The position numbers and the translations under genes are program-made. From Alphaproteobacteria bacterium (GTDB lineage Bacteria; Pseudomonadota; Alphaproteobacteria; SP197), in NCBI GenBank assembly GCA_964291265.2, contig OZ219747.1, positions 576,001 through 640,000 on the forward strand: DNA of 64,000 nucleotides. The letters are read 5' to 3'. Under the pieces are notes generated by a model. That model searched no databases. It worked only from the letters and a program-made list of their open reading frames with translations, and was not told the origin of the DNA. Within the stretch, counting starts at the first letter, position 1; each line of letters opens with the position of its first letter. Positions 18,062 to 19,787 of the stretch are shown here, in pieces.

Positions 18062-18109
18062 AGTGAATGCCTCCCTTCCGATGGGACTTGTATCGTTGAC
18101 TGAAAGGCC

Positions 18110-19658
18110 CATGCCACCAGTCTGCGATCCGTCTCACGGATCATCGGAATGCCTTGCGGCAACGCTCCATTCGCGTGCAGATGCGCCAGTCCCCGACGCC
18201 TGATGTTACGGGCCGCATGGCCACAGGCCACGCATGTGAATGTCGTCTGTGACGGACGCGAGACGGCGTCAGCTGTGCCGCACTCCTCACACGTCTGGCT
18301 GGCATGCGCTGCGTTCACCGCGACGAGGCGCGGAGCCTTGCAGGCGAGCATCGCCCGCAACTCACCTCAGCCGGTGGCGAGGATCCCGCGGTTCAGCCCG
18401 GACTTCGCCTTCACGTTCGTCCCGGGATGCTCGACCGTGCCCTTTGCACTCCGGGTCATGTTGGCGGTCTTCGGATCTTCCACGACGACCGTTCCGCCGG
18501 CCAGCTTCCGCGAGACGTGGTGCTGCCGGTTGCGCCGTTTCATGACCACCCTGCGCACCGTCCGGGCATGGCGGCGGCGGATGCGTTCACGCCGCTTGCT
18601 GCCCTTGCGCTGGCGCGACATCCTGCGCTGCAACCGCTTGCACCGCGCTTCGCGGCGGTCCGTCGCCGATAGCCACCTGGCCCGCGTTCATGTCGATGCC
18701 GGTCACCGTGCCGTCGGTCCGCCTGATGACGGCGCAGACCGGCTCTCCCTCGGGGCAAGTGTTCCCTCCCCTGCGGCGCAGCGTCATCGGCCCGATCTTC
18801 TTAAACCGAAGTTCCAGGGCTGATCAGGCGCAAATATATGATATGAATGACATTCGATGGATCTCAGAGGCGTCTGACTGGGTACACTACGGCTTTACGC
18901 CGAGGAGTTTGAGTGTTCTTCTCTGGAGCGGCGTGGGCCGCGTAGTGACCTGGAAGGGCCCGGCGCCCGGCGAAGTGGAGCGCCACGGTGTTGCGGGTGA
19001 TGGTGCGCTTCTTGACCTTTCCGACTTCGCGCCGGGGGCTCGTGGAGCATGATGGCGGGTGGAGGGGACTGGTTGAGGAGGGCTTTGATGCACATGGCTA
19101 CCGTGCATGGGCGTGCCGCGAACGTATGTCAAGCACAAGGTGCATTCATACATGGGTACACTGTGAAGCCTGATGAATCCAACAAAGAAGGCAAAATCAG
19201 TGAGTTGTTGTGAAGATCAGCAGGAAATCGTCCGGAACTTCGGCTTAAACGTGGAGCTTGCCGTCCAAGGATGCGGATGGCGTCCGGGAGCGTCACGCCG
19301 TCATGTCCGCGCCGCCTGAACTTCGGGCGGCCGCCTCAGCCCCCCTGAAACATCGTTGCCACGCATCCGGTGGTACTTGAGGGCAGAGCGCTCAAGCGCA
19401 CACGGCATCCCCTGCAAACACGGCGTCAACCGGCGAAGCCGGGTGAAATGCCTTGCCGAGCCGTGAAGAACGAAACACTCGCCGACCGTTCCGCACCCGC
19501 CGGTCTCGCCGCTGCAACGAGCTGCTCCAAGCCGGTCGAGCATGGCGTTCCGGACGAAGCGGCAGGCGGTGAGCGAGAGCAGCCAGCCTGCGTGCTTTCT
19601 TCCGGGATCCGGGAAGCAGCCGATGGACAATCTGTCGGTGTTCGGTATCGTTCGCCAT
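18110..19658 (-). pseudogene. tnpB: RNA-guided endonuclease TnpB pseudogene, interrupted by a MITE
   Basis: Fragments ACRFVRNAML, RPKFRRRG, GIDMNAGQ (RuvC-I), VVVED...MTRSAKGT...NVKAKSGLNRGILATG* (RuvC-II), SQTCEECG/FTCVACGH zinc finger. Frameshifts and stop present; RuvC-III Asp region deleted. Confidence 0.88.
18806..19243 (-). mobile_element. Complete IS1634-derived MITE (438 bp)
   Basis: TIRs CCGAAGTTCC/GGAACTTCGG identical to those of the IS1634 at 47051-50812; 6-bp TSD CTTAAA; retains fused 5' and 3' ends of the transposase gene. Confidence 0.92.
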
Positions 19659-19787
19659 GCGCGGTCGGCCCTCCATTGGCCGCCTGGTGGGGCGGGGAAG
19701 GCGACCCCAAGTCACACGCGCATCAACCCGCAACATCGCCTTCCAGTCAACGATACAATGACCTTTCTGAGCATGAGGAATTCGTCC

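Follow-up and report, generated by a model that had tools for sequence, protein, structure and literature searches.

The decayed tnpB gene between nudC and gloB in the window (the whole 64,000-nt stretch of DNA analysed here) very probably belongs to a non-autonomous, tnpB-only element with IS1595-type ends. Of 32 such elements with paired ends, 30 have a G immediately 5' of the left copy of their 8-bp target duplication (TSD), as TG in 18, CG in 6 and GG in 6. This one-sided G or TG, which was absent from the original prediction for this locus, likely represents a TAM lying outside the TSD; as a single G it would be a very short one.

Conservation among copies, together with empty nudC-gloB sites, places the element at 18083-19763 on the minus strand, between genes with NUDIX and HAGH domain matches that bear out the nudC and gloB assignments made earlier. 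The 21-bp inverted repeat from which the original prediction started (18088-18108 and 19738-19758) is indeed present, with 20 of 21 positions matching, a score that 300 shuffles of the 4-kb region never reached, and the host genome contains it 16 times if up to two mismatches are allowed. However, the termini are not TGT...ACA, as had been proposed, but GG...CC: in genome copies and relatives the conserved stretch reaches 5 nt past the 21-bp repeat at either end (left GG(T/C)GA-TTGTATCG..., right ...CGATACAA-GTCCC). The left end is thus a 26-bp imperfect TIR starting with GG (19738..19763, minus strand), conserved in genome copies and relatives, and the right end a 26-bp TIR ending in ...AAGTCCC (18083..18108, minus strand).

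A clean TSD had been thought to be missing, yet an 8-bp duplication exists. Its left copy (19764..19771, minus strand CTCAGAAA) and its degenerate right copy (18075..18082, minus strand ATCGGAAG) still agree at 5 of 8 positions in the window. Several same-genus genomes have empty nudC-gloB sites, and none of the six that we retrieved (L022-L027) contains a palindrome there. The closest of them, L023, holds a single 8-mer that matches the left copy at 7 of 8 positions, with spacing exactly as expected if the window holds two copies, and it is for this reason that we take the window element to be 18083-19763 with a degenerate TSD. Ten near-intact relatives from four other genomes (nine of 1331-1336 bp and one of 767 bp) include five with a perfect 8/8 TSD, and a contig of run X5 skips exactly 1342 bases, that is, 1334 + 8, the element plus one TSD. 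A contig scan of genomes with the exact 20-mer gave one locus, and a metagenome scan yielded two close relatives among 52 loci.

The tnpB pseudogene itself (18109..19658, minus strand; intact relatives encode 399 aa with Pfam domains HTH_OrfB_IS605, OrfB_IS605 and Cas12f1-like_TNB) is as decayed as originally described. It carries a premature TGA at the W308 codon (18367..18369, minus strand), frameshifts in its 5' half, an in-frame deletion ahead of RuvC-I, and a 21-nt deletion (junction at 18216..18217, minus strand) that removes ADHADLN including the RuvC-III Asp; the RuvC triad and the zinc finger are lost. An unrelated 440-bp MITE is inserted at 18805..19244, with TTAA duplicated at 18801-18804 and 19245-19248. 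The window copy is dead and is itself capable of none of the functions proposed below. The same holds more widely in the host genome, where all 25 of 25 tnpB remnants are fragmentary or contain stops. The inserted MITE has short TIRs (CCGAAGTTCC...GGAACTTCGG) and is present in ten near-full-length copies, the window's included, plus many partial matches; the copies are mostly flanked by 4-bp YTAR-type duplications.

Intact solo-tnpB copies elsewhere in the genus are 1334 bp long and filled by tnpB. Element DNA has matches in 13 of the genus's 23 genomes, and the protein in 7 of 46 from another alphaproteobacterial family, these seven belonging to one genus; close relatives are rare in samples of 401 genomes taken from the class and the phylum. 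Identity to the protein is 54-97% among the best 120 database clusters. In an alignment of 117 proteins (the query plus 116 of these 120 clusters), at least 90% of the sequences retain D191, E271 and D363 as well as the zinc-finger cysteines, so that the homologues display the hallmarks of TnpB/OMEGA nucleases, the RuvC D-E-D triad and the C4 zinc finger. Relatives thus have intact catalytic residues, and a dN/dS of 0.26 among seven intact copies shows purifying selection. In a quick tree of 94 rows, a branch with an SH-aLRT value of 99 keeps the 21 TIR-bounded TnpBs together; the outgroups of this tree comprise seven Y1-linked and only one serine-linked TnpB, and have long branches. An unconstrained search for TIRs and TSDs near more distant TnpBs (below about 45% identity) returned chance pairs only.

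The ends point to the mobilising enzyme. Left ends of tnpB elements match those of autonomous IS1595 elements at up to 21 of 22 positions (18 of 18 in one copy), with different tnpB-element subfamilies matching at least five different autonomous TIR types. Of the genus's 23 genomes, 18 have matches to PF12762, as do all 5 of 5 tested in the second family, and the autonomous elements there encode a transposase with Zn_ribbon_IS1595 and DDE_Tnp_IS1595 domains, produce 8-bp TSDs and have TIRs such as GGGGATTATATACTTGACTGAA. The end motif of the ISNwi subgroup is 'ggnnatTAT'. The tnpB elements share with non-autonomous IS1595 elements the 8-bp TSD (5/8 in the window) and GG-starting TIRs that match IS1595 elements, and in the tnpB loci searched none contains an IS1595 transposase, the Zn-ribbon and DDE_Tnp_IS1595 enzyme that would make it autonomous. 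Since no such transposase was found inside any element, and since ends and TSD agree with IS1595, we infer that the tnpB elements are likely mobilised in trans by an IS1595-family DDE transposase. The earlier proposal of mobilisation in trans by a DDE transposase is therefore most likely right in kind, but it had pointed to IS481, Mu or Tn7, and IS1595 fits instead. As it had also stated, the window element has no tnpA, and a Y1 transposase (PF01797) had no match anywhere in the 100%-complete host genome; six resolvase matches lie elsewhere in that genome. One locus, L265, was considered as a composite with a transposase in cis and rejected: it consists of two separate elements, with the IS1595 transposase about 3.8 kb away and bounded by its own ends.

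In the host genome of the window, the L101 enzyme has an 83% identical counterpart at C2:945302-946297, an IS1595 transposase that comes with the matching left end and with a D-to-N change; both IS1595 transposases of this genome look damaged, with D-to-N in a catalytic motif. A strict scan of the same genome for IS1595-type MITEs without tnpB found none. The family looks extinct in the window's genome but recently active in relatives. As a separate observation, autonomous IS1595 elements of the genus carry DNA methyltransferase or restriction-modification passengers (N6_Mtase; L102:4480-6924 and L103:4589-7192), and by eye there are methyltransferase-like ORFs beside the host IS1595 transposases as well (G000 C2:944471-945311 and 925447-926377).

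The right end is predicted to serve as RNA as well. Stem-loop 1 of the predicted omegaRNA lies at 18183..18200 (minus strand), its loop GGGGACU (18188-18194) being the predicted 5' strand of a pseudoknot, and the hairpin GATCCGT-CTC-ACGGATC (18126..18142, minus strand), which is present just as the original prediction had it, falls within the predicted scaffold. Across 26 aligned right ends the stem around the GGGGACU loop is conserved, and the partner of the loop is AGUCCC, the element's final six bases, which in the window copy lie about 105 nt downstream and make up the predicted 3' strand of the pseudoknot. Taking stem and pseudoknot together, 95% of 286 cells are paired, 12 of them with double changes, as compared with 36-49% in slid controls and with 0 of 500 shuffles reaching as high, figures that come from a structure named from the very sequences tested and from aligned rows that are kin. 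Considered by itself, the pseudoknot has 91% of 156 cells paired and double changes in three of six pairs; its strands also lie in tnpB codons and in the TIR, and so are under constraint from elsewhere too. Folded singly, the sequences give weak z-scores (-2.2 to +0.5), and Rfam gave no significant match for the right-end RNA. Matching sequence makes up small shares of two metatranscriptome runs, present there as assembled contigs, which cannot show transcription or RNA ends.

In line with the original prediction, and with compensatory changes in the right-end pairing, the right TIR is predicted to form the 3' end of the omegaRNA scaffold, closed by the pseudoknot. Because a scaffold closed in this way ends with the TIR, the guide would begin at the first base of the TSD (minus strand ATCGGAAG...), and the right TSD copy would supply its first 8 nt. 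A guide beginning 'AGTCCC...', as previously suggested, was misplaced: that stretch lies inside the element, and the flank begins at 18082.

We paired elements by requiring a TSD of at least 7/8 and a TIR of at least 12/22 and by merging orthologous sites. This rule left 32 elements paired and 90 right-end candidates unpaired. Many of the latter duplicate one another through a single mis-cut query, are fragments at contig edges or are degenerate copies, the window's among them. Of the two rows without G, one is the false pair L211 and the other L029, where a TG lies one base farther out; the register of L122 is ambiguous, and it was read as GC in an earlier, differently filtered set, where G was found in 20 of 22. 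The base at -2 varies among the 32 elements (T 19, G 7, C 6), and the mirror base, C after the right TSD, occurs in 12 of 32. As a control, 40 matches to the IS1595 transposase gave 20 paired autonomous elements under a similar rule with a TIR threshold of at least 15/22, one of which (L115) looks false. Here G stands on the left in 4 of 20 and on the right in 7 of 20, and none of the 20 has TG on the left (Fisher p 6e-8, an optimistic value, as the insertion sites are independent but the elements are related). The G is kept whichever of at least five different autonomous TIR types the left end matches, and in two host families. In the window, the candidate TAM is the TG at 19772..19773 (minus strand), directly 5' of the left TSD. 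It is host sequence, already there in empty sites L022-L024, and its position is precisely the one required of a TAM by a guide that begins with the TSD.

We consider it reasonably probable that these features work together as follows. An IS1595-family DDE transposase, acting in trans, would move a ~1.33-kb tnpB-only cassette and duplicate 8 bp of the target. RNA from the right end would then guide TnpB, with the TSD followed by the flank as the guide. An empty allele, reading G/TG-TSD-flank, would be cut by TnpB and repaired from the occupied allele, restoring the element, and the occupied allele, which matches just 8 guide bases, would be spared. Only those copies that landed beside a TAM would be protected from loss by excision or recombination. 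As autonomous IS1595 elements show no preference of this kind for their targets, we think it likely that the bias comes about once insertion has taken place. Such a filter would need to be strong, taking G from about 32% to about 94%.

Alternatively, TnpB might act before or during insertion, its ribonucleoprotein reading G/TG and steering the IS1595 transpososome alongside in a fixed orientation without guide pairing, a course of events that we regard as unlikely. A bias that is near-absolute (30 of 32), that tracks the tnpB cargo across TIR types, that is absent from autonomous elements and that is present in decayed copies too, such as that of the window, would be expected under such steering, but TnpB has no known way to act on its own elements and yet not on autonomous IS1595 elements in the same cell. 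Guide-directed targeting is likewise unsupported: among the 1128 pairs that 48 sites make up, not one has 11 or more of 16 flank bases in common (null mean 0.98), and an RNA-guided, CAST-like choice of new sites was rejected on the same ground, the right flanks of the 48 sites being without excess similarity. It is doubtful that the OMEGA nuclease and its RNA position a trans-acting IS1595 transposase in an orientation-specific manner, so that the TSD falls in the guide-seed position; if they did, a TAM-directed OMEGA-DDE partnership would provide each new copy with a working homing guide.

We also give little credence to the idea that the G is a preference of the transposase itself, caused by unequal ends (left GGCGA..., right GGGAC...), with TnpB either passive or using another TAM/guide boundary, e.g. 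a Fanzor-like one with the TSD in the scaffold. While the ends of the tnpB elements are unequal and those of many autonomous elements identical, the G is retained in L232, L239 and L246, the ends of which are near-identical (21/22), and autonomous elements L105, L118, L262 and L268 have unequal ends yet are without G. The true mobilising transposases may, on the other hand, be missing among the 20 controls. Positions 1-2 of the TSD, being A/T-rich, could belong to a TAM, but an A/T-rich TSD start is common to the autonomous elements, and a variable 8-bp TSD is hard to fit into a scaffold whose pseudoknot ends at the TIR. Finally, an IS200/IS605 or IS607 (IS1341-like) element whose repeat would be the palindrome of a target or a subterminal structure, or an IS481/Mu/Tn7-type element with TGT...ACA ends, is highly improbable despite the membership of TnpB in IS605/IS607-type Pfam families and the presence of TTGAC and TCAA inside the repeat, given the 8-bp TSDs, the GG...CC ends and the lack of a Y1 transposase match in the complete host genome, and an IS200/IS605 (including IS1341) or IS607 identity is refuted by the TSD and empty-site data, homologues not ending at TTGAC/TCAA and empty sites L022-L027 being free of palindromes, the two points on which the original prediction had staked itself.

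Our preferred reading, a tnpB element moved by IS1595 and retained by cutting of empty sites through G/TG, has partial precedents. Altae-Tran et al. (2023; PMC10691335) describe six DDE-associated TnpB branches with TIRs, DDE-1 to DDE-6, and solo TnpBs moved in trans. One supplementary line assigns to DDE-5 a 'TA motif 8bp upstream' of the ends, which is a precedent for a TAM beyond the TSD, with another motif: TA there and G/TG here, at equal distance from the end. DDE-5 is, however, listed among the branches with rearranged catalytic sites, whereas the RuvC triad here is canonical, and unlike in the DDE branches no cis transposase was found in the present lineage. In the available text of that paper only IS630 is named, with IS1595 appearing only in the supplement's profile list, and DDE-5 or another of its branches may be of the IS1595 type. 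The available section 6.2 of Kojima (2026; PMC13565253) names ISL2, IS630 and IS1031 as partners, and PMC12507524 has IS1595 in one table only, unrelated to tnpB. We found no paper describing a TnpB-IS1595 pairing in a literature from which most subscription papers were out of reach, and Fig. 4 or Additional Files 10-11 of Altae-Tran et al. may name IS1595.

GG ends with an 8-bp TSD are given as the IS1595/Merlin signature in the part of PMC8101967 at hand, and the likeness to that family comprises GG-starting TIRs, the 8-bp TSD and ends near-identical to those of autonomous members in the same genus. Unlike those members, the tnpB elements have no transposase, carry tnpB as sole cargo, use the right TIR as predicted RNA scaffold and have a one-sided target base. 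On the nuclease side, they resemble ISDra2, ISGst, CboIStron and ISXfa1, as far as the accessible portions of these sources go, in combining a RuvC and zinc-finger TnpB with a predicted right-end RNA and the flank as guide, with retention by empty-site cutting being the part that we infer here (10.1101/2023.03.14.532601, 10.1101/2023.11.20.567912, PMC10711439). Stem-loop 1 and a 3'-end pseudoknot are described for the ISXfa1 and CboIStron omegaRNAs (PMC10711439, 10.1101/2023.11.20.567912), and the predicted pseudoknot has the same geometry as that of ISXfa1 (PMC10711439); repair from the occupied allele after cutting of the empty site was shown for IS605 elements (10.1101/2023.03.14.532601). 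In IS200/IS605 and IS607 OMEGA systems, as presented in these same partial sources (10.1101/2023.03.14.532601, 10.1101/2023.11.20.567912, PMC10711439), transposase and nuclease specify one motif directly at the left end and there is no TSD. In contrast, the motif here stands 8 bp away, beyond a variable TSD, and the transposase family is without such a preference. Fanzor1 and Fanzor2* are similar in that the nuclease is cargo of non-autonomous DDE elements and the TIR is in the RNA scaffold, but in the accounts available Fanzors place the 5' TSD in the TAM and the 3' TSD in the scaffold, whereas here the TSD is the predicted guide seed (PMC10711439, PMC13565253).

According to section 6.2 of PMC13565253, TnpB in bacterial DDE transposons is rare and unexplained, since DDE transposases duplicate their target and supply no TAM. 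The present lineage suggests a solution to this puzzle, with a minimal TAM beyond the duplication and the duplication itself as guide seed, and autonomous IS1595 elements without the bias provide a natural control. Whether targeting or later selection is the source of the TAM coupling is directly testable with intact copies. A compact TnpB clade of about 400 aa with a possible one- or two-base TAM could also be useful in editing.

Several further observations concern individual copies. The TSD is imperfect in five of the ten otherwise near-intact copies (L002, L028, L031, L033 and L034), which could reflect an escape from self-binding at the left junction, where TAM and 8-nt seed would meet. 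In one intact copy the left TIR contains a -35-like TTGACT, 17 nt and GATGAT, facing tnpB (L072:1514-1542; a consensus match only). Right ends outnumber left ends by about 2:1 in the host genome (G000; 22 versus 11 rows), and some of its relics that consist of a right end only still have the predicted omegaRNA and may once have worked as guides in their own right. A single insertion site holds the full 1334-bp element in one genome and a 375-bp internally deleted form in another (L041:2130-2504 versus L031, G011 versus G004); the 375-bp form retains both ends and the RNA scaffold. At G000 C2:2835393-2838612, one left end is accompanied by two right ends (2836708 and 2838612) and the TSD agrees with the outer one, which suggests a compound element with about 1.9 kb of other DNA.
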